In this document: piece after piece, positions 5,420 to 60,899 of the stretch
Position numbering within the stretch: position 1 is the first letter of the stretch
How the letters are laid out: each line of letters opens with the position of its first letter
DNA from: Myxococcota bacterium
GTDB taxonomy: Bacteria; Myxococcota_A; UBA9160; SZUA-336
DNA: 64,000 nucleotides
Assembly (NCBI GenBank): GCA_035498875.1
Contig: DATJZP010000061.1
Location: forward strand, 71,321-135,320
Direction of reading: 5' to 3'
Translations under genes and position numbers: made by a program
The notes under the pieces: generated by a model
Database searches by the model: none
What the model was told of the DNA's origin: nothing
What the model saw: the letters and a program-made list of their open reading frames with translations, nothing else

Positions 5420-6376
5420 CTAGAAACGGTCGGACGTCCAATAAGTCGCGGGCGGGCGAACGATCAGCGCGTCGAGCAGCTGCGCGTCGCTCGTCGACCC
5501 GGGAAGCGCCGCGATCTCGGCCAGTGACCCGCGGTCGAGCACGCGCCACATCGGCGAGGGATCCGCAGCCAGGCCGATCGCGATGCCGCGGCGCTCGAGC
5601 GCGTCGGCCAGCTCGGCGTCGCGCACGAACGGCACGTACAGCGCGCGTTCGCCGCTCGCGGCCCCCGCCAAGAGCGCCGCGAGTGACTCGGCGCCGCCCG
5701 GCGCGCGCGCGTACTCGAGCGCGCGCAGCCGGCCGTTGAAGCTCGCGCAGCGGAGGTAGGCGTCGAGCGCGCTGGCGCGCTCGCACAGCAGGAAGCGCTC
5801 CGACGGCGTGCCGGCCGTGCGCAGCTGGCCGCGCCAGTAGCGCGCGTCGCGCACGGTGGGGCCGGAGAGCGGTGCGACGAAGGCGTCGTAGAGGGCGCTC
5901 ACGCGCTCGAGGTCGGCGGCGGTGAACGGGCGGACCGCCGCTGCCGGCGCGGCGTCGGGCCGCGCGCGAGACAGCCGCAGCAGCGGCGCGGGAATCTTTC
6001 GCCAGCCGAGCCGCTCGTAGAGCGGCGCGACCGGCGCCGCGAACAGGAGCGAGATCGCCATCCCGCGGGCCCGCATGCGCTCGAGCGCGCGCTCCAGCAA
6101 GTCACTCGCGAGGCCCCCGCCGCGCTGACTCGCGTGCGTCGCGACCGAGCCGATCCCGCCGAGCCGCACGGCGCGGCCCCGCAGCCGGATCGTCTTCGCG
6201 AACACCTGCACGCAGGCCACCGGCGCGTCGCCGTCCAGCGCGAGCAGGAAATCGCCGTAGGCGAACTCCGGGTCGAAGTCCATGTAGCGCTCGAACAGCT
6301 CGCGGATCCCGAACGCGTGCTCGAGCAGGTCGAGCACGGCGCCGCGGTCCGCGCGCTGCATCTCCCGGAACCGCAC
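5420..6376 (-). CDS. GNAT family N-acetyltransferase (Eis-like, GNAT plus SCP2-like C-terminal)
   Basis: GNAT core segments RGGGLASDLLERALERMRARG. Length 318 aa. Sits between the leuB-like and leuA-like genes. Confidence 0.7.
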   Translation of the reverse strand: MRFREMQRADRGAVLDLLEHAFGIRELFERYMDFDPEFAYGDFLLALDGDAPVACVQVFAKTIRLRGRAVRLGGIGSVATHASQRGGGLASDLLERALERMRARGMAISLLFAAPVAPLYERLGWRKIPAPLLRLSRARPDAAPAAAVRPFTAADLERVSALYDAFVAPLSGPTVRDARYWRGQLRTAGTPSERFLLCERASALDAYLRCASFNGRLRALEYARAPGGAESLAALLAGAASGERALYVPFVRDAELADALERRGIAIGLAADPSPMWRVLDRGSLAEIAALPGSTSDAQLLDALIVRPPATYWTSDRF

Positions 6377-12921: not shown

Positions 12922-13899
12922 GTGGCGCGCGTCGGCGCGCCCGGTACCCTGCCGGCCTTGCATCGGGGGTTGTCTCTCGCGCTCGTGTGTCTGTGCGCCG
13001 CCGCGGCGTGCGGGGATCGCGCCGCGGCGCCGCCCGTGGCCGCGGCAGCCGCCGCGACGGCGGATTTCGACGGCGCGCGCGCCTTCAAGGACCTCGAGGC
13101 GCTGGTAGAGCTGGGGCCGCGTCCGGCCGGCTCGGAAGGCGCGGCACAGGCGCGTGCGCTGATCCGCGAGCGTCTCAAGCAGGCCGGCTGGCGGGTCGAG
13201 ACACACGACTTCAGCGTGCCGCGGCCGGGCGCGAGCGCCGTGGCGATGACCAACCTGATCGCGCACCGCGGCAGCGCGAGCGGCCCGCACACGCTGCTCA
13301 TCACTCACTACGACACCAAGAACATCCCGGGCATGAAGTTCGTGGGCGCGAACGACGGCGCGTCGGGCGTGGCCGTGCTGCTCGAGCTCGCGCGAGTCAC
13401 CGCCGCCGATCCCGGCTCGGCGCAGCTCGAGCTCGTGTTCTTCGACGGCGAGGAGGCCTTCGGCAAGAACATCGACCAGAACGACGGCCTCTACGGCAGC
13501 AAGGCGCTGGCCGAGCGCATGGCAAAGGACGGGTCACTGGCGCAGGTGAAGGCGATCGTGCTGGTCGACATGGTCGGCGACAGTGACTTGAACCTCGCGA
13601 CAGACCTGCGCTCCGCGCCCGAGCTGCGCAAGGCGTTCGAAGCCGCCGCCGCGCGGCTCGGCCTGCCGCCGCCGTTCGATCCCGCGCAGGAGATGGGCGT
13701 GATCGACGACCACACGCCGTTCCAGGAGCACGGCGTCGAGCAGGCGCTGGCGCTGATCGACTTCCAGTACGGCTCGCGCCGCTCCCCCGGTCCCCGCTGG
13801 CACACCGCCAGCGACACCCTCGACGCCGTCTCCGCACAGAGCCTCGACCGGGTCGGCAAGATCCTGGTCGAGATGCTGCGCAGACCTGAGCATGGGTAG
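12922..13899 (+). CDS. M28 family zinc peptidase (lipoprotein)
   Basis: LSLALVCLCAAAACG lipobox-like signal, and FFDGEEAFG with HYDT/metal-ligand segments of the M28 family. Start uncertain (GTG 12889, GTG 12922, TTG 12958). The stop codon lies inside the REP-like hairpin. Confidence 0.7.
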   Translation: MARVGAPGTLPALHRGLSLALVCLCAAAACGDRAAAPPVAAAAAATADFDGARAFKDLEALVELGPRPAGSEGAAQARALIRERLKQAGWRVETHDFSVPRPGASAVAMTNLIAHRGSASGPHTLLITHYDTKNIPGMKFVGANDGASGVAVLLELARVTAADPGSAQLELVFFDGEEAFGKNIDQNDGLYGSKALAERMAKDGSLAQVKAIVLVDMVGDSDLNLATDLRSAPELRKAFEAAAARLGLPPPFDPAQEMGVIDDHTPFQEHGVEQALALIDFQYGSRRSPGPRWHTASDTLDAVSAQSLDRVGKILVEMLRRPEHG

Positions 13900-13912
13900 G
13901 GTGCCCATGCGA
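13889..13912. repeat. REP-like palindromic element copy 1 (aGCATGGG-TAGGGTG-CCCATGCga)
   Basis: Conserved core GGGTAGGGTGCCC with complementary flanks. Overlaps the M28 stop codon. Confidence 0.8.
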
Positions 13913-13975
13913 CCATAAGGCGGTTCTTTGCGTCACATCTACGTGGGTTTCAGCCACTTCAGGGCGGTCCCTGCG

Positions 13976-14584
13976 ATGGCCATTCTTCGAACTCTTGCTG
14001 CGGCGGCTGCTCTGGCGATCTCGGCTTGCGCGCAGAACCCGCCGCCCGCGGTTCCCGCGGCCGAGCCCGCGCCTGCGAGCGCGCAGCCCGCGGTGACCAG
14101 CAGCGCGGCGCTGCGCGTGGTCACCAGCGGACCGGTCGGCAGCTATCTCGAGCGCCAGCAGGCGGAGCTCGCCGCCGGCGGTGCGCAGGTCGAGCGCAAG
14201 AAGGACGCGCTGGTGGTGAGCCTCGACGGCGACACTCTCTTCGACGGCAGCTCGGCGCAGCTCTCAGCCGCGGGCGTCGAGCGCGTGCGCGCGCTCGCGC
14301 ACACGCTCCAGCCCTATCCGAAGCAACGCCTGATCGTCAAGGGCCACACAGACGGTCAGTCGGACGAGCGCGCGGGCCAGCGCCTGTCCGAAGAGCGCGC
14401 CGACAGCGTGCGCAACCTGTTGGTGGCCGAGGGCGTGCTGCCCTCGCGCATCAGCGCGGTCGGCCTGGGCGCGAGCCTGCCCGTGGCCAGCAACTCCACC
14501 GCCGAGGGCCGGGAGCAGAACCGGCGGCTCGAGATCGAGCTCCTGCCCGATGACGACGTGCTGCAAGGGGAGCCCTCCCAGTGA
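13976..14584 (+). CDS. OmpA-family lipoprotein (OmpA C-terminal peptidoglycan-binding domain)
   Basis: MAILRTLAAAAALAISAC is a lipobox. The C-terminal OmpA_C motif includes GHTDGQSDERAGQRLSEERADSVRNLL. Confidence 0.75.
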   Translation: MAILRTLAAAAALAISACAQNPPPAVPAAEPAPASAQPAVTSSAALRVVTSGPVGSYLERQQAELAAGGAQVERKKDALVVSLDGDTLFDGSSAQLSAAGVERVRALAHTLQPYPKQRLIVKGHTDGQSDERAGQRLSEERADSVRNLLVAEGVLPSRISAVGLGASLPVASNSTAEGREQNRRLEIELLPDDDVLQGEPSQ

Positions 14585-15972
14585 CTCGCCGGCGTGATAA
14601 GGTCGCGTCCCGCATGGTGCCGCACGCGCTCCGTTGCTTCCGCTGCGCAGGCTCCGCGGCGCTCGCCGCGGCGCTGCTCTCGGCGCCCGCCGCGCGCGCG
14701 CAGGACGCCAAGGGCGACGCGCTGCCCGTGAAGATCGAGATCCGCTCGCCCAAGCCCGGCGAGACGCTGAAGAACAAGACCGACATGGCCCCGCTCGCGG
14801 GCCTGGCGATCGCGGGCGAGCGCGCCGTGAACTTCGACGTGATGATCGTGATCGACATCTCCGGCTCGACGGAGTACCCGAGCGGGATCGACGTCGACGG
14901 CGACGGAGTCACCGGCGTGACCGAGCGCTCGGTGACTCCCGGCGTGGACGACACGGTCAACACCGATCCCGACGACTCGATCCTGGCCGCCGAGGTCGCC
15001 GCCGCGAAGTCACTCTTGGGCGGGCTCGACCCGAGCCGCGTGCACGTGGGCGTGGCCTCGTTCTCGGGCGAGATCGACCCGAACACCGGCCGCGGCGTGA
15101 ACGCCGCCAACGACGCGCAGCTCGAGCTGCCGCTCTCCGCCGACTTCAACGCCGCGCGCGGCGCGCTCGAGGCGATCCGGCTGCGCGGCGCGAGCGGCGG
15201 CACCAACATGCAGGCGGGCGTGAAGCTCGCGCTGCGCGAGCTGGCGGGTCTGCCCGGCGCGCAGTCACAGCCGCGCGCCAACGCCAAGAAGGTGATCCTG
15301 TTCCTGACCGACGGCCGGCCCTCGCTGCCGTTCGGGCTGGCGAACGTGGAGGACAAGGAAGACCAGCTTGCCGCGATCGACGCCGCGTCGCTCGCCAAGG
15401 TGGCCGGTGTGATGCTGAACGTGTACGGGCTGGGCCCGAACGCGATCGACTATCCCGTGGCCGCGATCGAGATGGCCAAGGCCACCAACGGCACCTATAC
15501 ACCGGTGCGTGTACCCGGCGACATCGTGTCGCTGCTCTCCGGCGTGTCGTTCGCGAACGTCGAGGACGTGGTCGCGGTGAACCTCACGCTGAACGAGTGG
15601 GCCGGGCCGAACGACATCCTGCTCTTGCCCGATGGCTCGTTCAAAGGCTTCGTGCCGGTGCGGCCGGGCATGAACCGGATCCGCGTCTCGGCGCTGGCCA
15701 GCGACGGCTCGCGCGGCTCGACCGAGTTCGACCTCTCGTTCGCGAGTCAGGGCATGACCACGCTCGAGCTGCAGGCCGAGCAGGAGCGGATCCGCCAGCG
15801 CACGAAGGAAATCCAGCTCCGGCTCGAGCGCGACAAGCAGGAGGCGTTCCGCAAGCAGGAGCGCGAGCGCACGCTCGAGATCAAGGTCGATCCCGGTGCG
15901 CAGAAAACGACCCCGCCGAGCGAGCCGAACGCTCCGGCGGTGCCGCCGAAGCCTTCGATCGAACCTCGCTAG
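14581..15972 (+). CDS. secreted von Willebrand factor type A (VWA) domain protein
   Basis: Signal peptide, then a DxSxS MIDAS motif (DISGST) with VILFLTDGRP, and a C-terminal coiled-coil/Pro-rich tail. ATGA overlap with the OmpA-like stop. Confidence 0.75.
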   Translation: MTRRRDKVASRMVPHALRCFRCAGSAALAAALLSAPAARAQDAKGDALPVKIEIRSPKPGETLKNKTDMAPLAGLAIAGERAVNFDVMIVIDISGSTEYPSGIDVDGDGVTGVTERSVTPGVDDTVNTDPDDSILAAEVAAAKSLLGGLDPSRVHVGVASFSGEIDPNTGRGVNAANDAQLELPLSADFNAARGALEAIRLRGASGGTNMQAGVKLALRELAGLPGAQSQPRANAKKVILFLTDGRPSLPFGLANVEDKEDQLAAIDAASLAKVAGVMLNVYGLGPNAIDYPVAAIEMAKATNGTYTPVRVPGDIVSLLSGVSFANVEDVVAVNLTLNEWAGPNDILLLPDGSFKGFVPVRPGMNRIRVSALASDGSRGSTEFDLSFASQGMTTLELQAEQERIRQRTKEIQLRLERDKQEAFRKQERERTLEIKVDPGAQKTTPPSEPNAPAVPPKPSIEPR

Positions 15973-15980
15973 TCCGAAGA

Positions 15981-16005
15981 TCGCGTGGGCACCCTACCCA
16001 CGCTC
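15981..16005. repeat. REP-like palindromic element copy 2 (reverse orientation)
   Basis: tcGCGTGGG-CACCCTA-CCCACGCtc. Sits between two convergent stops. Confidence 0.8.
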
Positions 16006-17506
16006 AGTTCACCATGTTCGGGTCGGCGACTTCCTTGCGGACGAGCTTGCCCTTCTCGTAGTACGAGGTGACGTCGATCACGCCGTCGAAGTTGGTGTCT
16101 TCTTCGCGGCGCACCAGCACCACCTTGGCCGGGTCGGTGCCCTCGAAATACTCGAACACGTCGGGCTTGCCGTCCTCGTTCTTGTCGCGCTCGACGCGGA
16201 CCAGCACGCCCTTGTCGTTGAAGTAGGTGCGTGAGTCCATCACGCCGTTCAGGTTCGTGTCTTCGATCTCGACCGTGCGCTTGCCGTTGGTGTACTCGAT
16301 CCGGCGGTCGATCTTGCCGTCGTTGTTGTTGTCGTACTCCTCGTACGCCAGCACGCCGTTCTGGTACTGCAGGAACCCGTCGCGCTTGCCGTCGAAGTTG
16401 CGGTCGACCTCGACGCGTGTCGCGGTCTCGCCGCCGTCGTAAGTCAGCCAGCGGTCGGGCTTGCCGTCGTTGTTGGTGTCCTCCGCGCGCTCCTTCAAGC
16501 GCCCGTCGGGGAGGTAGGTATTCACGGCGTCGAGCGTGCCGTCGAAGTCGGTGTCTTCCTCGCGAGTCAGCACCTGCCCGGTCTTCGGATCGATCGTGAT
16601 CTTGATCTCGGGCTTGCCGTCGCGATCCGCGTCGAGTGTCTTCACGAGCAGCTCTTGCTTGCCCTGCTTCACGGTCTTGGTCTCGAAGATCGAGTCAGGA
16701 ATCTCGCGCTGGCAGGGGCGCTTCGGCGCCGCGGTGGCGTCCTGCGGGGTGGCCGCGCCGCCGTTGCAGTCCTTCGACTCCTGCTGGAGCGTCTTGTTGA
16801 CCTCTTCCTGCTTGTTGATGGCGGCGAGCAGCTCTTCCTGGTGCTTCAGCTCGGCTTCGATCTCGGCCTCGAGGTCTTCCTGCTTCTTGACCTCCTGGTC
16901 GACCTCGTTCTCCATGTCCTCGTCGTTGCCCTTCGAGTGACCACCGCCTCCGCCCTGCGGGCTCTGGCGGCGGCCGGAGTCGAACGGAACGTCGCCGGTG
17001 ATCACGCCGTACAGGCCGAAGGCCGCGGCGCCGGCGATCGCGCCGATGCCGCCGAACTGCGCGCCGATCACGACGCCGATGATCATGCCCTCGAGCCCGG
17101 CCTCGGCGCGCCGGCCGATGTCACTCTGGCGCCGGCGCTGCGCCTGGGTCGCGGTCTTGTGACTGCTCTTCTTCGGCGGCGCGTTGTCGGTGTCGTCGTC
17201 CGGATCCGCGCTCGCGGTCTTCGGGTCGCTGCTCGCGGGCGTGGCGGCCGGGTCCGAGCTCGCGGGCGCATTCGCCGGGTTCGAGACCGGAGTCACTCCG
17301 GGATTCGCGGGCGCCGGATCGGGCGTCGCTGCGGGCGCCGTCTGGGGCGGCGTGGCGCTCGGCGTCGAGGCATCCGAGGTCTTCGCGGGATCCGTCGGCG
17401 CGGACGTCGCGGGCGCCGGCGGCGTGGCCGTCGCGCAGGCCAGGCTGGTGCACAGAAAGCCGATCAGAATCAGCTGAGAAACGTCGCTACTCGGCTTGCG
17501 CTTCAT
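16004..17506 (-). CDS. lipoprotein with glycine-zipper segment, acidic coiled coil and seven tandem ~23-aa Ca-binding-like repeats (D-x-[DN]-x-DG-x-x-D)
   Basis: MKRKPSSDVSQLILIGFLCTSLAC is a lipobox. Pro/Ala/Thr linker. GMIIGVVIGAQFGGIGAIAGAAAFGLYGVITG is a glycine zipper. The repeats are EDTDFDGTLD / EDTNNDGKPD / VDRNFDGKRD / YDNNNDGKID / EDTNLNGVMD / RDKNEDGKPD / EDTNFDGVID. The track start at 17593 is an upstream extension. Confidence 0.7.
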   Translation of the reverse strand: MKRKPSSDVSQLILIGFLCTSLACATATPPAPATSAPTDPAKTSDASTPSATPPQTAPAATPDPAPANPGVTPVSNPANAPASSDPAATPASSDPKTASADPDDDTDNAPPKKSSHKTATQAQRRRQSDIGRRAEAGLEGMIIGVVIGAQFGGIGAIAGAAAFGLYGVITGDVPFDSGRRQSPQGGGGGHSKGNDEDMENEVDQEVKKQEDLEAEIEAELKHQEELLAAINKQEEVNKTLQQESKDCNGGAATPQDATAAPKRPCQREIPDSIFETKTVKQGKQELLVKTLDADRDGKPEIKITIDPKTGQVLTREEDTDFDGTLDAVNTYLPDGRLKERAEDTNNDGKPDRWLTYDGGETATRVEVDRNFDGKRDGFLQYQNGVLAYEEYDNNNDGKIDRRIEYTNGKRTVEIEDTNLNGVMDSRTYFNDKGVLVRVERDKNEDGKPDVFEYFEGTDPAKVVLVRREEDTNFDGVIDVTSYYEKGKLVRKEVADPNMVN

Positions 17507-17645
17507 CCGCGGCCTCTCACCCAACTCTACATCGACCCGGCGGAAATTGCCCCACACACCGATCGGCTCGGGGAAACTCGCGCTTGAGAACACGTTTCCC
17601 CCGTGGAGCTGCGTGTGCAGTGATGACGGTTGCGTTCCAGTATTG

Positions 17646-23165: not shown

Positions 23166-24461
23166 ATGTCGATCGAAACGCTGCGCGAAGCCGAGCGCTA
23201 TCTCGACGGACTCATCAACCGCGAGCAGAAGACTCAGTACGACTACGAGCGACTCGGGCTCGGTCCGATCCGCGCGCTGCTCGCCGCTGCCGGCCACCCG
23301 GAGCGCGGCTTCCCGTGTCTCTTGATCGCGGGCTCGAAGGGGAAGGGCACCACCACGCTCGCCGCCGAGCAGCTGCTGCGCGCCGCCGGACGGCGCGTGG
23401 GCACGTTCACCAAGCCCCATCTCGAGAGCTGGCGCGAGCGCTTCCGGATCGACGGCGAGCTCGTGCCCGAGGCCGACCTGGTGCGCGCGCTCGCCGACCT
23501 GCAGCCCGCGATCGAGGCGCTGCGCGGCGACACCGAACGGTGTCCCAGCTTCTTCGACGTGACCGTCGCGCTGGCGCTGCTGCTGTTCCGGCGCGCGGGC
23601 GCGGACGTGGGCGCGATCGAGGTGGGGCTGGGCGGACGGCTCGATTCGACCAACGCGGTCGACGCGCGCGTCACCGTGGTCACGGCGATCCAGCTCGAGC
23701 ACACCGACAAGCTCGGCGACACGCTCGAGGCGATCGGCCGCGAGAAGGCGGGCATCTTCCGCAAGGGCGTGCCGGCGCTGCACGGGCCGCTGCACCCCGA
23801 GGCCTGGGGCGCGATCGCCGCGCAGGCGATCGCCGCCGACGCCCCGCTCGACGAAGTGACTGCCCACGAGGCGCGCTGCGACCACGACGGCATCCGCTTC
23901 CGGCTGGCCGACGGCCGCGCGCTGCAGAGCCCGGTGCTCGGCGTCCACCAGGCCACGAACCTGGCGCTGGCCGTGCGTGCGGTCGAAGTCTGGCTGGGCC
24001 GACAGCTCTCGGCGCGCGAGCTCGAGTCACTGGGCGCGCTGCGCCTGCCCGCGCGGCTCGAGCGGATCGGCGAGGCGCTGGTCGACGACGCTCACACGCC
24101 CGACTCGGCGCGCGCGCTGCGCGAGACGCTCGAGCGCTTGTGGCCGGGCACGCGCTTCGCGTTCGTGCTCTCGATCTCGCGCGACAAGGACGCCGCGGGG
24201 CTGCTCGCCGAGCTCGCGCCGGTGACTCGCGCCTGCGTCGCGACCGCGGCCGAGCCCACGCGCTCGCTCGATCCGGAGGAGCTGGCCACGCTGGCCTGGG
24301 CCGCGGGCATCGAAAAGGTCGAGAGCGAGCCCGATCCGCTGCAGGCGCTGGCGCGCGCGCGGTCGCTGCTCTTGCCCGGCGACCGGCTGTGCGTCACCGG
24401 CTCGATCTTTCTCGCGGGCCGGCTGCGCCGCCACTTGGTGGCCGCGGCGGGCCCCGTGTAG
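23166..24461 (+). CDS. folC: bifunctional folylpolyglutamate synthase/dihydrofolate synthase
   Basis: IAGSKGKGTT P-loop, IEVGLGGRLDSTN, and Mur-ligase family architecture. Length 431 aa. Confidence 0.85.
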   Translation: MSIETLREAERYLDGLINREQKTQYDYERLGLGPIRALLAAAGHPERGFPCLLIAGSKGKGTTTLAAEQLLRAAGRRVGTFTKPHLESWRERFRIDGELVPEADLVRALADLQPAIEALRGDTERCPSFFDVTVALALLLFRRAGADVGAIEVGLGGRLDSTNAVDARVTVVTAIQLEHTDKLGDTLEAIGREKAGIFRKGVPALHGPLHPEAWGAIAAQAIAADAPLDEVTAHEARCDHDGIRFRLADGRALQSPVLGVHQATNLALAVRAVEVWLGRQLSARELESLGALRLPARLERIGEALVDDAHTPDSARALRETLERLWPGTRFAFVLSISRDKDAAGLLAELAPVTRACVATAAEPTRSLDPEELATLAWAAGIEKVESEPDPLQALARARSLLLPGDRLCVTGSIFLAGRLRRHLVAAAGPV

Positions 24462-24488
24462 ACTGCCGCCCCCCGACGCGAACATCGG

Positions 24489-24512
24489 AGCGTGGGTAGG
24501 GTGCCCACGCGA
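24489..24512. repeat. REP-like palindromic element copy 3 (aGCGTGGG-TAGGGTG-CCCACGCga)
   Basis: Same core as the other copies. Intergenic between folC and the maoC-like gene. Confidence 0.8.
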
Positions 24513-24535
24513 AAATCGGTACCGGAGACCCCCCG

Positions 24536-25600
24536 TTGGCCTTGATCCGCAAGAAGACCGGCAACTTTCTCGAAGACTTCCGACTCGGTCAGCTGTTCCG
24601 GCACAAGGGCGGACGCACCGTGACCGAGGGCCTCACCGCTCACTTCACCGACTTCTCGTTCACCGCCAACCCGCTGCACCGCAACCTGCGCTACGCGCAG
24701 CGCTACGGCTACGAGGCGATGCCGATCACGCCCGGGCTGGTGATGGCGGTGGCGTTCAGTCAGACCGTGGAAGACATCTCCGAGAACGCGCGCGCCAACC
24801 TCGAGTACATCGACATGCGCTTCGGCGCGACGGTCTACGTGGGTGACACGATCGAGACCGAGACCACGGTGCTGGGCGTCCGGAGCTCGTCGAGCCGGCC
24901 CGAGCTCGGCGTCGTGCACGTGCAGAGCATCGCGCGCAAGCAGACCGGCCAGATCGTGCTCGCCTACCAGCGCAAGGTGCAGGTGTTCCGGCACGAGGCC
25001 AGCGCCAAGCTCGACGAGGGCGAGCTGCCGGCGGCGCCGGTCGACGTGGCGCTCGAGCTCCCGGCCTACGACTCCAACGCCGGCTATGCCGAGCTCGCGC
25101 ACCTGTCGAACGCCGACACCTACTTCGAGGACTTCACCCCTGGAGACACGATCGAGCACTCGCGCGGCCGCGTGATGACCGACGAGCACATCTTCCTGAC
25201 CGGCATGCTCGACAACACCAGCCAGGTGCACTGCAACCAGACCATGATCGACCGCGATCCCAGCCGCTATCTCGGCGGGAAGCTCGTGGTCTACGGCGGC
25301 ATTCCGTTCACGCTGTGTCTCGGTCTTTCGAGCCCCGACATCTCGGACAACAGCCTGGGCGACATCGTGTACAAGACCGGCCGCCACACCGCGCCGATCT
25401 TCTCGGGCGACACCGTCTTCGCCTCGACCGAGATCCGCGGCAAGAAGGACTACGCCGGCCGCCCCGACCTGGGCCGGCTCGAAGTCACCCTGCGCGGTCA
25501 CAAGTTCGAGCGCTCGGGCAGCGAGGAGAAACGCGTGCAGATCTTCGAGCTCGAGCGCGAGCTGACGGTCAAGCGCCGCACTCACTACGCGAAGTCTTAG
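24536..25600 (+). CDS. MaoC-family dehydratase with double hotdog fold
   Basis: Two hotdog halves across 354 aa (mesaconyl-CoA hydratase or (R)-enoyl-CoA hydratase-like). No Cys-rich or cofactor motifs. Confidence 0.7.
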   Translation: MALIRKKTGNFLEDFRLGQLFRHKGGRTVTEGLTAHFTDFSFTANPLHRNLRYAQRYGYEAMPITPGLVMAVAFSQTVEDISENARANLEYIDMRFGATVYVGDTIETETTVLGVRSSSSRPELGVVHVQSIARKQTGQIVLAYQRKVQVFRHEASAKLDEGELPAAPVDVALELPAYDSNAGYAELAHLSNADTYFEDFTPGDTIEHSRGRVMTDEHIFLTGMLDNTSQVHCNQTMIDRDPSRYLGGKLVVYGGIPFTLCLGLSSPDISDNSLGDIVYKTGRHTAPIFSGDTVFASTEIRGKKDYAGRPDLGRLEVTLRGHKFERSGSEEKRVQIFELERELTVKRRTHYAKS

Positions 25601-26107: not shown

Positions 26108-28036
26108 TCAGCTCGCGGCTTGTAGCTCCACGAAGTGCCGGTACGCGCCGCCTGGAATGGCGACCAGCTCGGAGTGAGTCCCGCGCTCTTCGATCACTCC
26201 ATCGCGCAGGAACAGGATCTGGTCGGCCTCGCGCACGGTCGTGAGCCGGTGCGAGACCAGTAAGACGATCCGGTCGCGCGCGGCCTCGCGCAGCGCGCTC
26301 ACCAGCCGGCGCTCGGTCTCGGGGTCGAGCGCCGAGCTGGGCTCGTCGAGGATCAGGATCGGCGCGTCGCGGAGCAGCGCGCGCGCGATCGCCAGCCGCT
26401 GCTTCTGGCCGACCGAGAGACCCGCGCCGCCGCGACCCAGGCGCGTGGCCCAGCCGTCGGGCAGCGCGCGCACGAACTCGTCGACGCCCGCGATCTGCGC
26501 CGCGCGCCGCAGCTCGAAGTCGCTCGCGCCGGGCTTGGCCAGGCGCAGGTTCTGCTCGAGCGTGCCCGCGAACAGCGCGGTCTCCTGGAACACGAACGCG
26601 ATCGCGGCGCGCAGCGAATCGAGCGTCACTTGGGCCACGTCCTGCTCGCCCACGAGCACCCGGCCGCGCTGCGGCGACAGGAAGCGCGGCACGTGCCAGA
26701 GCAGCGTCGTCTTGCCCGCGCCCGCGGGACCCACGATCGCCGTGACTGCTCCGCGGCGGGCTTCGAAGGACACGTCGCGCAGGCCCACACCCGCCTGCGG
26801 GTGAGTGAAGTCCACGTGCTCGAAGCGCAGCGACGCGGGCGGCCCGGCCAGGGCGTGTGCGCCCACGGCGTCGCGCTCGCTCTCCTCGTCGAGCAGCGCG
26901 AATACGCGCTCGAGTCCCGGCGCCGCGAGGTTCAAGGTGAACCAGAGCCCGCCCAGGTACGAGCACGCGACCATGATCTGCACGAAATAGGTGACGAGCA
27001 GCGACACGTCGCCCAGGCTGATCTGTCCGGCGATGCGCAGGTCGACCACCTCGAGGAAGGCGCCGCGCACGATCCACACGCCCGGCAGCAGCGCGCAGAA
27101 GATCCCGGCCATGGCCATGCCGATGACTCCCCGGTGCTCGCCGAACGAGGCCGAGCTGTCGCGGTCGAAGCGCGCGCGCTCGTGTGACTCGGCGCTCTGG
27201 CTCTGCACCGCCACGATGTTGGTGACGCCCTCCTCGAGCGCGCTGATCGTGGTCGAGCCGGCGGCGCGGCTGCGCAGCATGCGCCGCCGGACCAGCTCTG
27301 CGAACGGCCAGGTCGCGACCAGGACGGCGGCGCCGAGCGCGAACGCGTAGTAGGCGAGCTGGGGCGCGCGGTAGCTGTCCCAGAGCGCGTACGAGTAGAG
27401 CGCCACGGAGAGCGGAGACACGCACAGGATCAGGATCAGCCGGTAGCAGGTCGTGGTGATCGAGGGCGTGTCGTACATCAGCCGGTACACGGCATCGCCG
27501 ATGCGCGCGTCCTCGAGCTTCGAGAGCGGGAGGCTCTGGATGCGCTCGAACAGCTGCGAGCGGAAGTGGTGGGTCAGGTCCTGACTCAGTCGGATGGTCC
27601 AGCGGAAGTCGAGCCAGCCAATCAGGCCGCCCAGGAAGCTGAAGCCCAGATTGGCCGAGTTCTCGGTGGTGGTGGCGGCGTCCACGCCGCTGCCGAGGAA
27701 CGCCGTGGTCTGGTCGCGCTCGCCGCCACTCGTCCCGATCTGGCCGATCGCGACGAGCAGCACGCTCTGCGCAGCCACGGTGATCCAGAGCAGCTCCATG
27801 CGCGAGGCGCCGACCAGCGGCTCGAGCAGCGGCCGCACCAGGAACGGGAACGAGGCGATCCGGTCGGCGAGCGGCAGGTCGCCGATCACGTGGTCGATCA
27901 CGAGCTTGATCGGCACGGGCAGGACCAGCAGCGGCAGCACCGAGAGCGCCTGGAACAGTGTCTTCACCGCGAAGCGTCCGCGCAGCGGCCAGGCGAAGCG
28001 CAGCGCGCGCCACAGCGCGAGGAACGCGGGACTCAC
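26108..28036 (-). CDS. ABC transporter permease/ATP-binding fusion protein (exporter half-transporter)
   Basis: Six-helix TMD, then an NBD with Walker A GPAGAGKTT, signature LSVGQKQR and Walker B ILILDE. GTG start at 28036. The track N-terminal extension is spurious. Confidence 0.8.
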   Translation of the reverse strand: MSPAFLALWRALRFAWPLRGRFAVKTLFQALSVLPLLVLPVPIKLVIDHVIGDLPLADRIASFPFLVRPLLEPLVGASRMELLWITVAAQSVLLVAIGQIGTSGGERDQTTAFLGSGVDAATTTENSANLGFSFLGGLIGWLDFRWTIRLSQDLTHHFRSQLFERIQSLPLSKLEDARIGDAVYRLMYDTPSITTTCYRLILILCVSPLSVALYSYALWDSYRAPQLAYYAFALGAAVLVATWPFAELVRRRMLRSRAAGSTTISALEEGVTNIVAVQSQSAESHERARFDRDSSASFGEHRGVIGMAMAGIFCALLPGVWIVRGAFLEVVDLRIAGQISLGDVSLLVTYFVQIMVACSYLGGLWFTLNLAAPGLERVFALLDEESERDAVGAHALAGPPASLRFEHVDFTHPQAGVGLRDVSFEARRGAVTAIVGPAGAGKTTLLWHVPRFLSPQRGRVLVGEQDVAQVTLDSLRAAIAFVFQETALFAGTLEQNLRLAKPGASDFELRRAAQIAGVDEFVRALPDGWATRLGRGGAGLSVGQKQRLAIARALLRDAPILILDEPSSALDPETERRLVSALREAARDRIVLLVSHRLTTVREADQILFLRDGVIEERGTHSELVAIPGGAYRHFVELQAAS

Positions 28037-29979
28037 GAGGCCGCTCCCGCGAGCTCGAGCTCGGCCAGCGCCCGGAAGCTCCCGGCGGGGCGAGTCAAGA
28101 GCTCGTCCGGCGCGCCCGCCTCGATCACCTTGCCGCGGTCGAGCACCACCACCCGACGCGCCAGACGGACGGTCGACAACCGGTGAGTCACGAGCAGGAT
28201 GCAGCGGCCACGGCCCCACTCCGCCAGGTTCTCCACCAGCCGCTGCTCGGTCTCGGCGTCGAGCGCCGCCGTCGGCTCGTCGAGCAGGAGCACCTGTGGA
28301 TCCTTGAGCAGCGCGCGCGCCAGGGTCAGTCGCTGGCGCTGGCCCGTCGAGAGACCCGCGCCGCGCTCGCCCAGCACCGTATCGTAGCCGCGGGGCAGCC
28401 GGGCGATGAAGTCGTCGGCGCAGGCGACGCGCGCCGCCTCGCGCACCTGCGCCTCGCTCGCGCCGGGCCGGCCATAGCGGATGTTCTCGCCGATGCTGGA
28501 CGCGAACAGCACGTTCTCCTGCAGCGCGATCGCGATCGCGGCGCGCAGCTCGGCCACGCGCAGCTTGCGCAGGTCGATACCGTCCCAGGTGATCGCGCCG
28601 GCGTCGGGGTCGAACAGCCGCAAGAGCAGCGCCATGACCGTGCTCTTGCCCGCACCGGTGGCGCCGACCAGCGCAGTGACTCCGCCGACCGGAAGCTCGA
28701 GCTCCACGCCGACCAGCGCCGGGCGATCCGCCCGATAGGCGAACGACACGTCGCGGAACGCGATCCCGCGCTGCAGCGGGGCCAGCGCCACGGCGTCGGG
28801 CGCGTCCGCGATCTCCGGCTCGCGCTCGAGCAGCTCGAACGCGCGGTCGAGACCGACGGCGATGTCCTGCGCGTTCACCCAGATCCGGAACACGTCACTG
28901 ATCCCGTCGGAGCCGTTCGAGTAGAGACCTTTCCAGGCGTTGTACTGACCCAGGGTCCAGACCGAGAAGGCGGCGCCGATCAGGAGTGACTGCAGGCGCG
29001 GCACACTGAGCCGGTCGACCTGCTCGGCGAGCCACAGCGGCGCGCCTGCGACGGTGGCCAGCGTCGCAAGCGCGGTGCCGGCGATGATCACCACGCCGAT
29101 CAGCCAGAATACGCCCACGCCGAAACCGGCCGCCCAGCTGCGGGCCGTGCGCGCGCCGTCGAAGGCAGTGAGCGACGCCGCCTCGAAACGCTCCTGCTCG
29201 AGGCGCTCGAGGCCGAACGCCTTCACCACACGCATGCCCGTGAGTGTCTCCTGGATCTGCGAGGTGAGCGCGCTGTTCGTGGCGCGCGCGACCCGGAACT
29301 GCCCGCGCATGCGCTGCCCGAGCGCCCGTCCGAAGAGCGCCGTCGGCAGCCACACGGCGCAGAGCGCGAGCGCGAGCCCGGGCGAGAACGCGAACAGCAT
29401 CACGCTCACCACGGCGAAGCGCAGCAGCGCGAACGCCGGCGCGAGCATGAACGACTGCACCAGCTGAGTCACCATGGCACTGTCCTGCACCGTGCGGTAG
29501 ATCGCGTCGCCCACGCGGCTCTCTTCGTGGAAGCGCAGCGACAGTGCCTGCAGGCGGTCGACCAGCTGCATGCGCAGCGACTGATTCAGGCGTTGCAGGA
29601 TCCAGACGCCGTAGTAGAAGACGCCCATGCCGGCCGCGGTCATCGCGACGGCGATGCCGCCCAGGACCCAGGTGAGTCGCCCGGCGGCCGTGCGCCGCAG
29701 CTCGGGAGTGAGTCCGGCGCTCGTGTCGAGCGCCAGCAGCCGCGCGACCAGCGGCGAGAAATGGTCGCCCTGGAACACTCCGTCCCAGAGCGCGGGCGCG
29801 AAGGCCAGAAAGCTACTCAGGCCCACCAGCAGCAGCAGCGTGGCGGCGGCCGCGAGCAGCAAGAGGTGTCTGCGCACGCCGCGCAGGAGCGGCAGGGCAC
29901 GGCGCAGCAGATGTGCAAGTCCGCGCAGGTCGAGCTCTGCGTCGCGAGCCGGGGCGAGCTCGGGTCCGTTCCAGCTCAT
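28033..29979 (-). CDS. ABC transporter permease/ATP-binding fusion protein (partner half-transporter)
   Basis: TMD plus GATGAGKST, LSTGQRQR and LLLDEP. 4-bp overlap with the downstream partner implies a heterodimeric exporter. Confidence 0.85.
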   Translation of the reverse strand: MSWNGPELAPARDAELDLRGLAHLLRRALPLLRGVRRHLLLLAAAATLLLLVGLSSFLAFAPALWDGVFQGDHFSPLVARLLALDTSAGLTPELRRTAAGRLTWVLGGIAVAMTAAGMGVFYYGVWILQRLNQSLRMQLVDRLQALSLRFHEESRVGDAIYRTVQDSAMVTQLVQSFMLAPAFALLRFAVVSVMLFAFSPGLALALCAVWLPTALFGRALGQRMRGQFRVARATNSALTSQIQETLTGMRVVKAFGLERLEQERFEAASLTAFDGARTARSWAAGFGVGVFWLIGVVIIAGTALATLATVAGAPLWLAEQVDRLSVPRLQSLLIGAAFSVWTLGQYNAWKGLYSNGSDGISDVFRIWVNAQDIAVGLDRAFELLEREPEIADAPDAVALAPLQRGIAFRDVSFAYRADRPALVGVELELPVGGVTALVGATGAGKSTVMALLLRLFDPDAGAITWDGIDLRKLRVAELRAAIAIALQENVLFASSIGENIRYGRPGASEAQVREAARVACADDFIARLPRGYDTVLGERGAGLSTGQRQRLTLARALLKDPQVLLLDEPTAALDAETEQRLVENLAEWGRGRCILLVTHRLSTVRLARRVVVLDRGKVIEAGAPDELLTRPAGSFRALAELELAGAAS

Positions 29980-38842: not shown

Positions 38843-39223
38843 TCACTCCGGCTCCGAGGGCACGAAGCGGCGCACCTCGGCCAGCAGGTCCTTCACCGAG
38901 ATCGGCTTGGCCTGGTAGCCGTCGAAGCCCGCGCGCAGGATCGACTCGCGCTCGAGCGGCATGGCCGAGGCAGTCACCGCGATCACCGGGATGTGCGCGG
39001 TCTTCGGATCGGCCTTCAGCGCCGCGACCGCCGCCATGCCGTTCATGCCGGGGAGCTGGATGTCCATCAGGATCAGCGCGGGCGCGCGCTCGCGCGCCAG
39101 CGTGAGTCCCAGCTCGGCGCTCTCGGCTTCCGCGACCTCGTAGCCGCTCACCGTGAGCACGTCGCGCAAGAGCTTCGCGTTCATCGGCCGGTCTTCGACC
39201 ACGAGCACGAGCCGGTTCGCCAC
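38843..39223 (-). CDS. single-domain CheY-like response regulator
   Basis: LVLVVED, ALILMDIQLPGMNG and AVTA...K. Length 126 aa. Confidence 0.85.
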   Translation of the reverse strand: MANRLVLVVEDRPMNAKLLRDVLTVSGYEVAEAESAELGLTLARERAPALILMDIQLPGMNGMAAVAALKADPKTAHIPVIAVTASAMPLERESILRAGFDGYQAKPISVKDLLAEVRRFVPSEPE

Positions 39224-58427: not shown

Positions 58428-58431
<4 letters not shown>

Positions 58432-59513
58432 GACGGCTTCCGCAGCGGCAGCTCTACACGCATTCGTGTGCCCATGCCCACACGGCTCGTGACTTGGATC
58501 CGCCCGCCCTGGCGCACGGTCCAGTGCTGGGCGACCGCGAGCCCGAGCCCGGTCCCTTCCTTGCGTCGCGTGAAGAACGGCGTGAACAAGAGCGGCAGGT
58601 CCTCCTCGGGAATGCCCGGTCCGGTGTCTTCCACGTCGACGCGCACCATGCGCGCGCGCTCGGGTCCGACATGCTCCAGGTGATAGGTCGCCTCGATGCG
58701 CGTGCGCAGCGTGAGCGTGCCCTTGCCCGCCATCGCCTGGATCGCGTTCCGCACCAGGTTCAACAGCACCTGCGTGCTGCGGTCCGGATCGAACTCGAAC
58801 TCGGGGATGCTCGGGTCGTACTCGCGCACCACGCGGATGCCGCGCCAGCTCTCGCTCTTGCCGTGCAGCTCGACCAGGTCGTCGATCGCGCGGTGCAGGT
58901 TGGCGCGGCGCGGCCGCAAGTCACCGCCGTGCGTGAGCTGCGCCAGGTCGTCGAGCAGCCGGCGCATGCGCTCGGTCTCGCTGCGGATCAGCTCGGCGTA
59001 GCGCTGCTGGGTTGCGTCTTCCAGCTTGCCCAGGAGCAGCTCGGCGGCGCCGCGGATCCCGCCCAGCGGGTTGCGCAGCTCGTGCGCGATGCCCGCCGCG
59101 AGCTGCGCGAACAGCTCCGAGCGCGCGCGCTGGCCGAGCAGGTCTTCGAGCTCGAGGCCGATCGTGCGGTCGGCGAGCGACAGCACCGCGCCGCGGATCT
59201 CGCGCCCGACGCCGATCGGCGATGCGGTCAGGTCGACGACCAGCGCCCGGCCACCCAGGCGCTCGCGCAGCCGGCAGCCGTGCTCGGCCACCTCGCGGCC
59301 CTCGTTCAGCGCGGCCTCGAGCACCGTGACCGCGGGATGGGTGGGCCCGAGCGTCTCCGAGAGCGGCCGGCCCAGCGTGGCGACGCCCGACAGTCCCAGG
59401 ATCCGGCTGGCCTCGGGGTTCTGCAGCTCGACCCGGCCATCGGCGTCGGCGGCGAGCACCCCCACCCGGAGCGAGCCGAGAACGGCGTCCAGGCGCTCTG
59501 CCGTCTCGCTCAT
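58428..59513 (-). CDS. PAS-domain sensor histidine kinase (NtrB-like, cytoplasmic)
   Basis: PAS N-terminal domain, H-box AHELRNPL, and G-boxes DTGPGI and GTGLGL. Confidence 0.85.
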
Positions 59514-59557
59514 CAGGGGGTTTCCTCTTCATATACTGGGGCTTTCAGGGATCCCGG

Positions 59558-59581
59558 AGCGCGGGTAGGGTGCCCGCGCGA
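59558..59581. repeat. REP-like palindromic element copy 4 (aGCGCGGG-TAGGGTG-CCCGCGCga)
   Basis: Same core and compensating flanks. Lies in the divergent region between the ntrB-like HK and moeA. Confidence 0.8.
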
Positions 59582-59642
59582 TCAACGGAGGGGCTGCCTG
59601 AAATTGCCTAATCTTTGGGCAGACTAACATCGAGGAGGGCCG

Positions 59643-60899
59643 ATGCGCGAGGGGCAGGTCGAAGCGGAGCGGACGTCGGTCGGCGTGGCCGAGGCGCGCG
59701 AGCTGATCCTGGGCGCGGTCGCGCCGCTCGGCACCGAGACGGTCGGGCTGGCCGAGGCCAGCGGCCGGGTACTCGCGGAGTCGATTCGAGCGGGTATCTC
59801 GCTCCCGCCGGCCGACAACTCCGCGATGGACGGCTACGCCGTGCGCGCGGCCGACACCGCCGGCGCGCCGGTGACTCTGCGCATGGGTGAGGACCTGCCC
59901 GCCGGCAAGCGCAGCCAGCGCAAGCTCGTCGCCGGCGAGGCCGCGCGCATCATGACCGGCGCCGCACTGCCCGAGGGCGCGGACGCGGTGGTGATGGTGG
60001 AAGACACAGAGACCGACGGCGCGCGCGTGGTCCTACACAGAAGTGCGTCGCTCGGCCAGCACGTGCGCCGCGCCGGCGAGGACGTGCGGCCCGGCACGCC
60101 GATCGCCGAGCCCGGAGCGGTGCTGCGCGCGCCGCTGGTCGGCATGCTGGCGGCGCTGGGCCGCGCGCTGGTGTCGGTGCGCACGCGCCCGCGCGTGGCC
60201 GTGCTCGCCACCGGCGACGAGCTGGTGGAGCCCGATCGGCTGCGCGACGACGGCCGGATCGCGAGCTCGAATTCCTACGCGCTGTGCGCCGCGCTGCGCG
60301 AGATCGGCGCCGAGCCCGTGTATCTCGGCATCGCGCCCGACGAGCCGGAAGTGATCGCGCAGCGCTTCCGCGCCGCGCTCGCCTGCGACGCGGTGATCTC
60401 GAGCGGCGGTGTCTCGGTCGGCGACCGCGACTGGATCAAGCGGGTGCTGGTGAGCCTGGGCGGCAAGATGCGGCTGTGGCGGATCGCGATGAAGCCCGGC
60501 GCGCCGCTCGCGTTCGTGTGGGTCGACGGCAAGCCCGTGTTCGGGCTGCCCGGAAATCCGGTCTCCACGTTCGTGACCTTCGAGCAGTTCGTGCGGCCGG
60601 CGCTGCTGCGCATGATGGGACACACGAAGATCTTCCGGCCGGTGACTCGCGCGAGGCTCGACGCCGAATACACGAAGCCCGCGGGCCGCGCCCACTTCGT
60701 GCGCGTGGCGCTCGAAGAGCGCGCCGGTGAGTGGTGGGCCACGCAGAGCGGGGAGCAGGGCTCGAACATCCTGTTGTCGCTGGTGCGCGCGGACGGGCTC
60801 GCGTTCGTGCCCGCCGAGGCCACCCGGCTCGCGCGCGGCGAGTCCGTGGCGGTGCAGCGCGTGCACGACGCAGCGCTCGCGGCCGAGCCCGGGATTTGA
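59643..60899 (+). CDS. moeA: molybdopterin molybdotransferase
   Basis: MoeA N-terminal, MoCF-binding and C-terminal domains. GGVSVGDRD motif. Confidence 0.85.
   Translation: MREGQVEAERTSVGVAEARELILGAVAPLGTETVGLAEASGRVLAESIRAGISLPPADNSAMDGYAVRAADTAGAPVTLRMGEDLPAGKRSQRKLVAGEAARIMTGAALPEGADAVVMVEDTETDGARVVLHRSASLGQHVRRAGEDVRPGTPIAEPGAVLRAPLVGMLAALGRALVSVRTRPRVAVLATGDELVEPDRLRDDGRIASSNSYALCAALREIGAEPVYLGIAPDEPEVIAQRFRAALACDAVISSGGVSVGDRDWIKRVLVSLGGKMRLWRIAMKPGAPLAFVWVDGKPVFGLPGNPVSTFVTFEQFVRPALLRMMGHTKIFRPVTRARLDAEYTKPAGRAHFVRVALEERAGEWWATQSGEQGSNILLSLVRADGLAFVPAEATRLARGESVAVQRVHDAALAAEPGI

Follow-up and report, generated by a model that had tools for sequence, protein, structure and literature searches.

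What kind of element is a short hairpin that recurs four times, beside unrelated genes, in a single stretch of bacterial DNA? The question is raised by a 64,000-nucleotide segment (hereafter the window) of contig DATJZP010000061.1, a soil-metagenome contig of an uncultured Myxococcota bacterium. A first-pass annotation, made from the letters alone, had described there a 24-nt motif resembling a repetitive extragenic palindrome (REP), and considered it as a terminator, a stabiliser of mRNA or a protein-binding site. We examined the four hairpins together with their relatives in genome and metagenome collections. In our judgement they probably represent a REP-like element family of about 35 nt from an uncultured clade of soil Myxococcota: dispersed, stem-constrained hairpins that would be copied in trans as a non-autonomous unit.

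Four copies of one hairpin in the window

Exactly four sites in the window, 13894 (+), 15987 (-), 24494 (+) and 59563 (+), carry the 13-nt core of the motif, GGGTAGGGTGCCC, and allowing up to two mismatches adds no further site. The longer 23-nt pattern GCRYGGGTAGGGTGCCCRYGCGA also has four matches, against 0.00 expected from 100 dinucleotide-preserving shuffles. The full units, called copies 1 to 4 below, span 13884..13921 (+), 15972..16009 (-), 24484..24521 (+) and 59553..59590 (+). Their stems read GCAT/ATGC in copy 1 (hairpin proper at 13890-13910, an exact pattern match), GCGT/ACGC in copies 2 and 3, and GCGC/GCGC in copy 4. Under a covariance model trained on 85 related copies they score 54.1 (E=1e-12), 54.3, 49.3 and 56.1 bits, respectively. 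The next-best site of the window reaches 15 bits, and because of this gap (49-56 against 15 bits) we take the window to hold four clean copies and no decayed ones. A candidate fifth copy at 38950-38991 (15 bits) was rejected, being coding sequence without the apex. In ENA metagenome assembly ERZ27256511 the window makes up bases 19760-83759 of an 85-kb contig; 8.7 kb of this contig beyond the window contain no additional copy, which gives four copies in the 72.7 kb examined in total.

All four copies are extragenic or overlap a stop codon only, and the genes adjoining them are functionally unrelated according to Pfam. The positions, the complementary pairing of the three stem variants (read directly from the sequence) and the location of every copy at a gene end or in a spacer, all reported by the first-pass annotation, are hereby confirmed. 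The 3' tails of the four copies read GACCATAAGG, GATCTTCGGA, GAAAATCGGT and GATCAACGGA; that of copy 1 (GACCATAAGG) is degenerate.

Structure and covariation of the unit

The 24 nt originally assigned to the unit proved too few: conservation and the covariance model extend it to about 35-38 nt, with a consensus of roughly 35 nt, cCNGA-GCRY-GGGTAGGGTGCCC-RYGC-GANCAYCGG. It is a directional hairpin, in which a 7-bp G+C-rich stem (GCRYGGG/CCCRYGC) carries the near-invariant apex TAGGGTG. The last G of the stem and the first three bases of the apex spell GTAG (GG-GTAG-GGTGCCC), and the 5' end of the unit is cCNGA. In the predicted RNA fold, extra U·G and A-U pairs form around a GGG triloop, for a hairpin of about -16 kcal/mol; in the predicted DNA fold, the stem forms on both strands. 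Folding predicts the hairpin, with a stem of 7-9 bp, for every copy both as RNA and as DNA.

Variation in the stem is mostly complementary. Among distinct copies, GCGT/ACGC is found 70 times, GCAT/ATGC 60 times, GCGC/GCGC 17 times and GCAC/GTGC 8 times; these four perfectly complementary variants account for 88% of distinct copies, the remainder mostly having one wobble or mismatch. The top pairs in an all-against-all mutual information analysis are two stem pairs, (-2,14) with 0.88 bits and (-1,13) with 0.52 bits, which, together with the 88%, supports the earlier proposal of selection on a stem-loop. The strongest long-range signal after them is a third covarying pair, (-7,19), with 0.26 bits. 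Its two bases adjoin the conserved GA of either arm, on the 5' side in one arm and on the 3' side in the other (A-T 23, G-C 36, G·T 60, T-A 11 and C-G 4; n=167 copies). A tandem G·A step (5'-GA-3'/3'-AG-5'), replaced by G-C/C-G in about 10 copies, separates the stem from this pair, and past it lies a conserved single-stranded 3' tail, C-A-Y-C-G-G. Over the 9-pair apex-proximal helix, 98.8% of the cells of a 42-copy alignment (38 distinct) are paired, and shuffled and slid-partner controls are far lower.

In one subfamily the element itself brings a TGA, since an A of the opposite arm covaries with the T of TGAGC. Wobbles on the motif strand (11 G·T vs 6 A·C) do not differ significantly and do not designate a strand of action. 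A kink-turn reading of the G·A step was rejected on sequence inspection: the unpaired bases stand 3' of the GA on that strand, not 5'.

Relatives in Myxococcota genomes and soil metagenomes

Two collections were scanned with patterns that demanded the exact 13-nt core. The first, with one genome per species and the pattern GGGTAGGGTGCCCNNGC, returned at least 110 loci, and the matches listed are mostly single chance matches in unrelated taxa, without the 5' arm. At least 21 loci, coming from four Myxococcota metagenome-assembled genomes (DATFUE01, JBGQIB01, DATJZN01 and JBBDXF01), have the full unit, often in tandem. The second scan, of Joint Genome Institute (JGI) metagenomes with the pattern GCNNGGGTAGGGTGCCCNNGCG, returned at least 118 loci; the matches listed there are almost all members of the family, on contigs of 65-74% G+C. 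Family copies can be sought with the pattern GCRYGGGTAGGGTGCCCRYGC as an alternative to the covariance model (R1). The pooled total comes to at least 205 copies at no fewer than 163 sites, at least 176 of the copies being distinct when 20-25 nt of flank are counted. Viral contigs (IMG/VR) gave a single match, so the repeat is essentially absent there. The core is exact in 32 of the 44 bystander copies, i.e. those that were not the cause of their locus being retrieved, and the others differ from it by one or two bases.

The flanks of the 176 distinct copies are mutually unrelated. Chance recurrence, or a conserved coding motif, might be imagined from the 71% G+C of the window and from a few related copies inside long open reading frames (ORFs; loci L161, L164 and L225, retrieved loci being numbered in this way), yet it is refuted by these unrelated flanks and by the shuffles, in which zero matches are expected, and it is at odds with window copies that touch coding sequence only at a stop codon; we put its probability at next to nil. 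The REP-type dispersed palindrome of the first-pass annotation is in turn supported, by the 176 or more distinct copies in related Myxococcota DNA and by the filled and empty orthologous sites described below. We also looked for what that annotation had named as fatal to its proposal, namely few copies, a lack of covariation or membership of coding sequence, and encountered none of the three.

When the literature was searched for the core on either strand, an unrelated primer was the sole match, and the main surveys of REPs and of REP-associated tyrosine transposases (RAYTs) make no mention of Myxococcota.

Some copies in the related loci have peculiar surroundings. About 24 of them (in L024, L060, L095, L127, L151, L180, L190, L197, L203, L218 and others) are set inside a larger recurring mosaic, with a left module ...CGAGCGAGGGCCGTCCCGAGCGAGGCCCGCAAGCGGCG and a right module GCGCGCAGTGAGCCGCAGGCGAACGAAGTC, which in some cases recurs at 77 or 170 nt. 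No larger structure emerged consistently when this mosaic was folded, and its modules are absent from all window copies. A variant with symmetric flanks, GCGCATGGGTAGGGTGCCCATGCGC, is found at L161 482-506, L164 894-918 and L225 1378-1402 (the 3' arm being GTGCGC in L225), apparently about 1.35 kb inside a long opposite-strand ORF and at the same relative position in the three contigs; it may be an intragenic copy or an artefact of gene calling. On an unrelated Cyanothece contig (L107), the core occurs twice, at 5689 (+) and 6066 (-), inverted and about 380 nt apart, with similar flanks TCCAGAA(C/A)TTAGGGTAGGGTGCCCGC. This is a different inverted-repeat element, having the core in common by chance or convergence.

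Gain, loss and compensatory change at orthologous sites

Three related loci, L231, L232 and L233, share the gene order of the window around copies 1 and 2: Mg-chelatase, M28 peptidase, OmpA, VWA and an unknown convergent gene. Between M28 and OmpA, the element is present in the window and missing from all three loci. At the VWA/unknown junction, the window and L232 carry it at an equal distance from the VWA stop; neither L231, with a spacer of 10 nt, nor L233, whose spacer is different and longer, has it there. L232 and L233 carry degenerate copies at other junctions, which are empty in the window. The element has hence been gained or lost at orthologous sites.

The copies of the window and of L232 at the VWA/unknown junction are distinguished by one stem pair, G-C in the window and A-T in L232, the stem of L232 being GCAT/ATGC. 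Two origins are conceivable for this double change: compensatory substitution in a copy that was inherited, or conversion from another subfamily.

Organisation of copies and their gene context

Among the matches listed, 133 of the 163 sites hold a single copy; there are also 19 doublets, 10 triplets and 1 quadruplet. All 30 arrays are head-to-tail, with a spacing of 30-36 nt. Such local amplification, along with the empty orthologous sites, indicates proliferation.

To describe the gene context, we called flanking genes by frame-specific G+C content at third codon positions (GC3) in 330-nt flanks and normalised the sites to the strand of the element. Most of the 151 related sites thus classified are extragenic. 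At the 105 sites classified on both sides, the neighbouring genes are co-directional and in the sense of the element in 39 cases, co-directional and antisense in 24, convergent in 22 and divergent in 20. This split is close to indiscriminate insertion into spacers, with a weak sense bias only. A sense-orientation rule, drawn from the window (4/4 sense), was discarded, as it does not generalise to the related sites.

Upstream stop codons are often close. Of 72 sites that have a gene upstream on the strand of the element, 41 show the element overlapping the stop of that gene or starting within about 4 nt past it. The distances peak at three values: in 6 cases the element sits at -12 nt, where the TAG of the apex is the stop codon (copy 1 and five other sites, at which the TAG of GTAG serves the flanking ORF), in 12 at -2 nt, where a TGA stop overlaps the 5' GA, and in 17 at -1 to +4 nt, beginning at or just past the stop. 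Much of this adjacency can be put down to native spacers, which are very short. Targeting of stop codons was considered and rejected: with the tail included, the spacing to convergent stops on the 3' side is just as tight.

Might the hairpins then be terminators or other 3'-end RNA hairpins, arisen and kept in place for gene regulation and never mobile? A stable hairpin, the proximity to stops at 41 of 72 sites and the mild sense bias (39 vs 24) are what such a family would show, but no T/U tract follows the hairpin at any of the four copies when the sequence is read. A terminator and promoter scan of 13500-16500 likewise did not flag copies 1 and 2. Rfam returned no gathering-score match in the whole window, and none overlapping the copies at E up to 10 in 13840-16060. 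Because no T-run follows and the scan is silent, the copies are not canonical intrinsic terminators, and the terminator role first suggested for them falls away in that form. The 20 of 105 sites between divergent genes and the 24 antisense to both neighbours fit it poorly as well. An identical 13-nt apex with a conserved tail at more than 160 unrelated sites is inexplicable by independent origin, and the arrays and empty orthologous sites point to proliferation instead. We consider a family of terminators maintained in place decidedly unlikely.

The 7-bp inverted arms with their 7-bp spacer, and the position of copy 4 in a divergent promoter region, also recall a palindromic operator, a site in double-stranded DNA for the dimeric transcription factor of some regulon. 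However, the neighbouring genes are functionally unrelated, most copies lie at gene 3' ends and tandem arrays reach four units. In addition, the conserved parts are the asymmetric spacer and the one-sided tail, and the arms change in concert; recognition of half-sites would predict the reverse. All this leaves the operator explanation very improbable.

Neighbouring genes in the window

Copy 1 lies after an M28 peptidase gene and before a gene of the OmpA family. The peptidase ORF (12922/12769-13899, +; Pfam Peptidase_M28, 4e-32) ends in the element, as the first-pass annotation had noticed: its TAG stop, 13897..13899 (+), is the apical GTAG of copy 1, and its final codons GAG CAT GGG TAG, i.e. 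the last three residues and the stop, are element sequence. The C-terminus (...LRRPEHG*) falls about 5 residues short of that of 30 or more homologues, whose tail after LR runs to about 10 residues. The closest homologues, at 74-78% identity, come from metagenome-assembled genomes of Myxococcota bacteria, and they place the window organism in Myxococcota. We note an out-of-frame TGA at 13887-13889 in a CCTGAGC context, which resembles the stop context CCCTGAGC of the closest homologue, L232.

Copy 2 lies between two convergent stops, again as first described, and fills the whole 31-nt spacer between them: the TAG of the VWA gene (15970-15972) and the TGA of a minus-strand gene (16004-16006), whose GA forms the first two nucleotides of the conserved 5' GAGC. 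This convergent neighbour is a 529-aa ORF (16004-17593, -) whose GC3 resembles that of coding sequence and which matches nothing in Pfam at E<=0.001. Within it there are six or more repeats with a period of 72-75 nt (24-25 aa), and the gene is conserved and syntenic in L231, L232 and L233.

Copy 3 is located 26 nt past the stop of a Mur-ligase-like gene (23166-24461) and 23 nt ahead of the TTG start of a mesaconyl-CoA hydratase gene (24536-25600). Copy 4 occupies the divergent intergenic region between a PAS histidine kinase gene (58428-59513, -) and moeA (59643-60899, +). Elsewhere in the window, 26300-26599 and 28234-28533 form a 300-nt direct repeat of 70% identity with a spacing of 1934 nt, probably paralogous coding segments.

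In three related loci (L008 122-816, L157 6805-7459 and L209 493-1876), tandem paralogues of about 190 aa are placed 600-690 nt apart, each followed by 1-4 head-to-tail copies whose number differs between the paralogues. The L008 paralogue is pilin-like, with a weak Pfam N_methyl match (E=2.4e-4, just below the curated cut-off). Finally, 22 of the 205 copies are within about 130-160 nt of a locus end, and in L023 6341-6429, L093 17-105, L024 84-185, L127 40, L149 26 and L226 5489 that end is the end of the contig. This suggests that the repeat arrays break short-read metagenome assemblies.

Search for a mobilising enzyme

The first-pass annotation had called for a search for a RAYT-like gene. 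We used phmmer with the TnpA-REP of E. coli (checked against 4ER8) and with the TnpA of IS200 and IS608 (approximate sequences), an HMM (hidden Markov model) built from three sequences, and a regular expression for HUH...Y. The only weak match, in L221 (E=0.007), was rejected as a NYN/OST-HTH protein.

The outcome is one of several points that weigh against a repeat copied in trans. The window, the 8.7 kb of flanking contig and 1.66 Mb of family-bearing loci (231 loci with all their ORFs, which are partial genomes probed with limited-reach queries) yielded no RAYT/IS200/IS605-type gene. The ORFs between oppositely oriented copies are ordinary genes, in L151, L172, L190 and L213 by Pfam (adenylate cyclase, acyl-CoA dehydrogenase, ROK and TGT) and in L188 by eye. 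Inverted doublets are missing, and none of the 163 sites has a neighbour on the opposite strand within 300 nt. The orientation bias, 39 sense vs 24 antisense sites, is only weak, and with 20 of 105 sites between divergent genes the data do not require a strand-specific RNA function. The invariance of the core is overstated, because both scans required it to be exact. Four expanding master copies, in place of many independent events, could lie behind part of the stem covariation and much of the covariation count.

These observations bear on the classical arrangement, too, in which REP halves are mobilised as inverted doublets (REPINs) by a single-copy RAYT gene flanked by the repeat. The present family has much in common with it: a short GC-rich hairpin repeat with GTAG, extragenic dispersal, compensatory stem variation and insertion polymorphism. 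RAYTs are single-copy genes (PMC5581495), and for that reason missing one in partial data is expected. On the other hand, the arrays are all head-to-tail with no opposite-strand neighbour within 300 nt, the GTAG is within the hairpin apex and is not a 5' terminal tag, and no Y1 transposase was found in the 1.66 Mb of loci. A REPIN-RAYT system in the strict sense is therefore doubtful here.

Discussion

We now propose how the repeat may spread. As a non-autonomous element, the unit would depend for its copying on a protein acting in trans, for which the invariant apex and the G·A platform of the folded single strand would be the recognition features; mid-stem bases would need only to pair. Conserved apex, G·A platform and tail, next to a mid-stem under no constraint other than pairing, are the signature expected of such a protein. 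IS200/IS605 and RAYT enzymes recognise their hairpins as folded single strands in this way (PMC3479197). An HUH/Y1 (RAYT-like) transposase would be the most likely candidate for the mobiliser, although none was found in the DNA sampled. As the CGGA tail of the element resembles the (C/T)(G/T)GA that precedes single copies, insertion beside an existing copy could build the head-to-tail arrays; replication slippage may be another origin for them. Hairpin recognition by IS200/IS605 and RAYT enzymes is reportedly a theme of the 2012 work of Ton-Hoang and colleagues.

At the RNA level, a hairpin in a 3' untranslated region or an intercistronic spacer would act as the REPs of E. coli do, as a barrier to 3'-5' exonucleases, and one abutting a stop codon would hinder ribosome release. 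We favour an action of this type over intrinsic termination because the hairpin is stable (about -16 kcal/mol as RNA) and has no U-tract. The REP hairpins of E. coli are reported to stabilise upstream mRNA and to be able to affect translation termination (Newbury et al. 1987; Liang et al. 2015). We infer the mobilising enzyme and any RNA-level role of the repeat from the pattern of conservation and dispersal.

The repeat could instead belong to a class of hairpins independent of RAYTs, whose single units and head-to-tail arrays insert beside an (N)GGA/TGA-like sequence recreated by their own CGGA tail. The apex GGGUAGGGUGCCC on its tandem G·A platform would then be the ligand of a protein specific to Myxococcota, for instance an undescribed domesticated nuclease or an RNA-binding factor. 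We find this unlikely; if true, it would amount to a second, mechanistically distinct route to REP-like repeats outside Proteobacteria.

Returning to a REP-like element copied in trans, we see it as an undescribed family within the known REP class and not as a new kind of system. It falls under the broad definition of a REP on three features, as a short imperfect palindrome that is extragenic and dispersed, with presence and absence at its sites; REPs in this sense typically also number >100 per genome. Like the REPs of E. coli and other Enterobacteriaceae, also known as palindromic units (PUs) and grouped in bacterial interspersed mosaic elements (BIMEs), it is an imperfect GC-rich extragenic palindrome of 20-40 nt, present in many copies near stops and in clusters, that forms a hairpin without a U-tract. 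In BIMEs the orientation of REPs alternates, and IHF or gyrase is bound between them (PMC2817692). The Myxococcota repeat, in contrast, has only head-to-tail clusters with periods of 30-36 nt that never alternate, shows no sequence similarity to them and comes from another phylum.

The resemblance to the GTAG-tagged REP superfamily (Di Nocera et al. 2013, PMC3733652), which includes REPs of Stenotrophomonas and Pseudomonas, is also partial. Those REPs carry a terminal GTAG 5' of stems of 6-13 bp with complementary changes, the TAG of which can supply the stop of a flanking ORF; head-to-head (HH) or tail-to-tail (TT) dimers predominate and head-to-tail (HT) dimers are negligible. The Myxococcota repeat shares the conserved GTAG, the complementary stem changes and the TAG used as a stop codon, but its GTAG is in the hairpin apex and its arrays are HT only, so that terminal tag and HH/TT dimers are both absent. 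No Myxococcota or deltaproteobacterial family is mentioned in that study (PMC3733652). With REPIN-RAYT systems (Bertels and Rainey 2011; Nunvar et al. 2010; Ton-Hoang et al. 2012), the family would share the logic of a non-autonomous hairpin recognised as folded single-stranded DNA by an HUH Y1 transposase acting in trans, along with conserved recognition bases and a freely covarying stem; it differs from them in having no defining inverted doublet, and no REP-flanked RAYT gene was found in the DNA sampled.

A last comparison concerns the conserved terminator-like hairpin repeats of high-G+C bacteria, for example the mycobacterial TRIT motif. These, too, are repeated hairpins downstream of genes in G+C-rich genomes, without a proper U-tract. 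Unlike them, the Myxococcota repeat, for which any termination activity would be putative, occurs between divergent genes, antisense to its neighbours and in tandem arrays as well.

To our knowledge, REP-like repeats have been studied almost entirely in Proteobacteria. Our data suggest no new biological principle; they add a well-defined REP-like example, with consensus, structure and covariance model, from an uncultured clade of soil Myxococcota. The repeat supplies or overlaps stop codons and trims C-termini, in the M28 peptidase and at about 20 of the 72 related sites with an upstream same-strand gene. Its arrays are often near contig ends and therefore may break metagenome assemblies; as a clade marker, the repeat could aid binning. 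Finally, its strict head-to-tail organisation, together with the lack of a RAYT in the DNA searched, makes the family a good case on which to examine whether RAYT-type enzymes are needed by all REP-like repeats.

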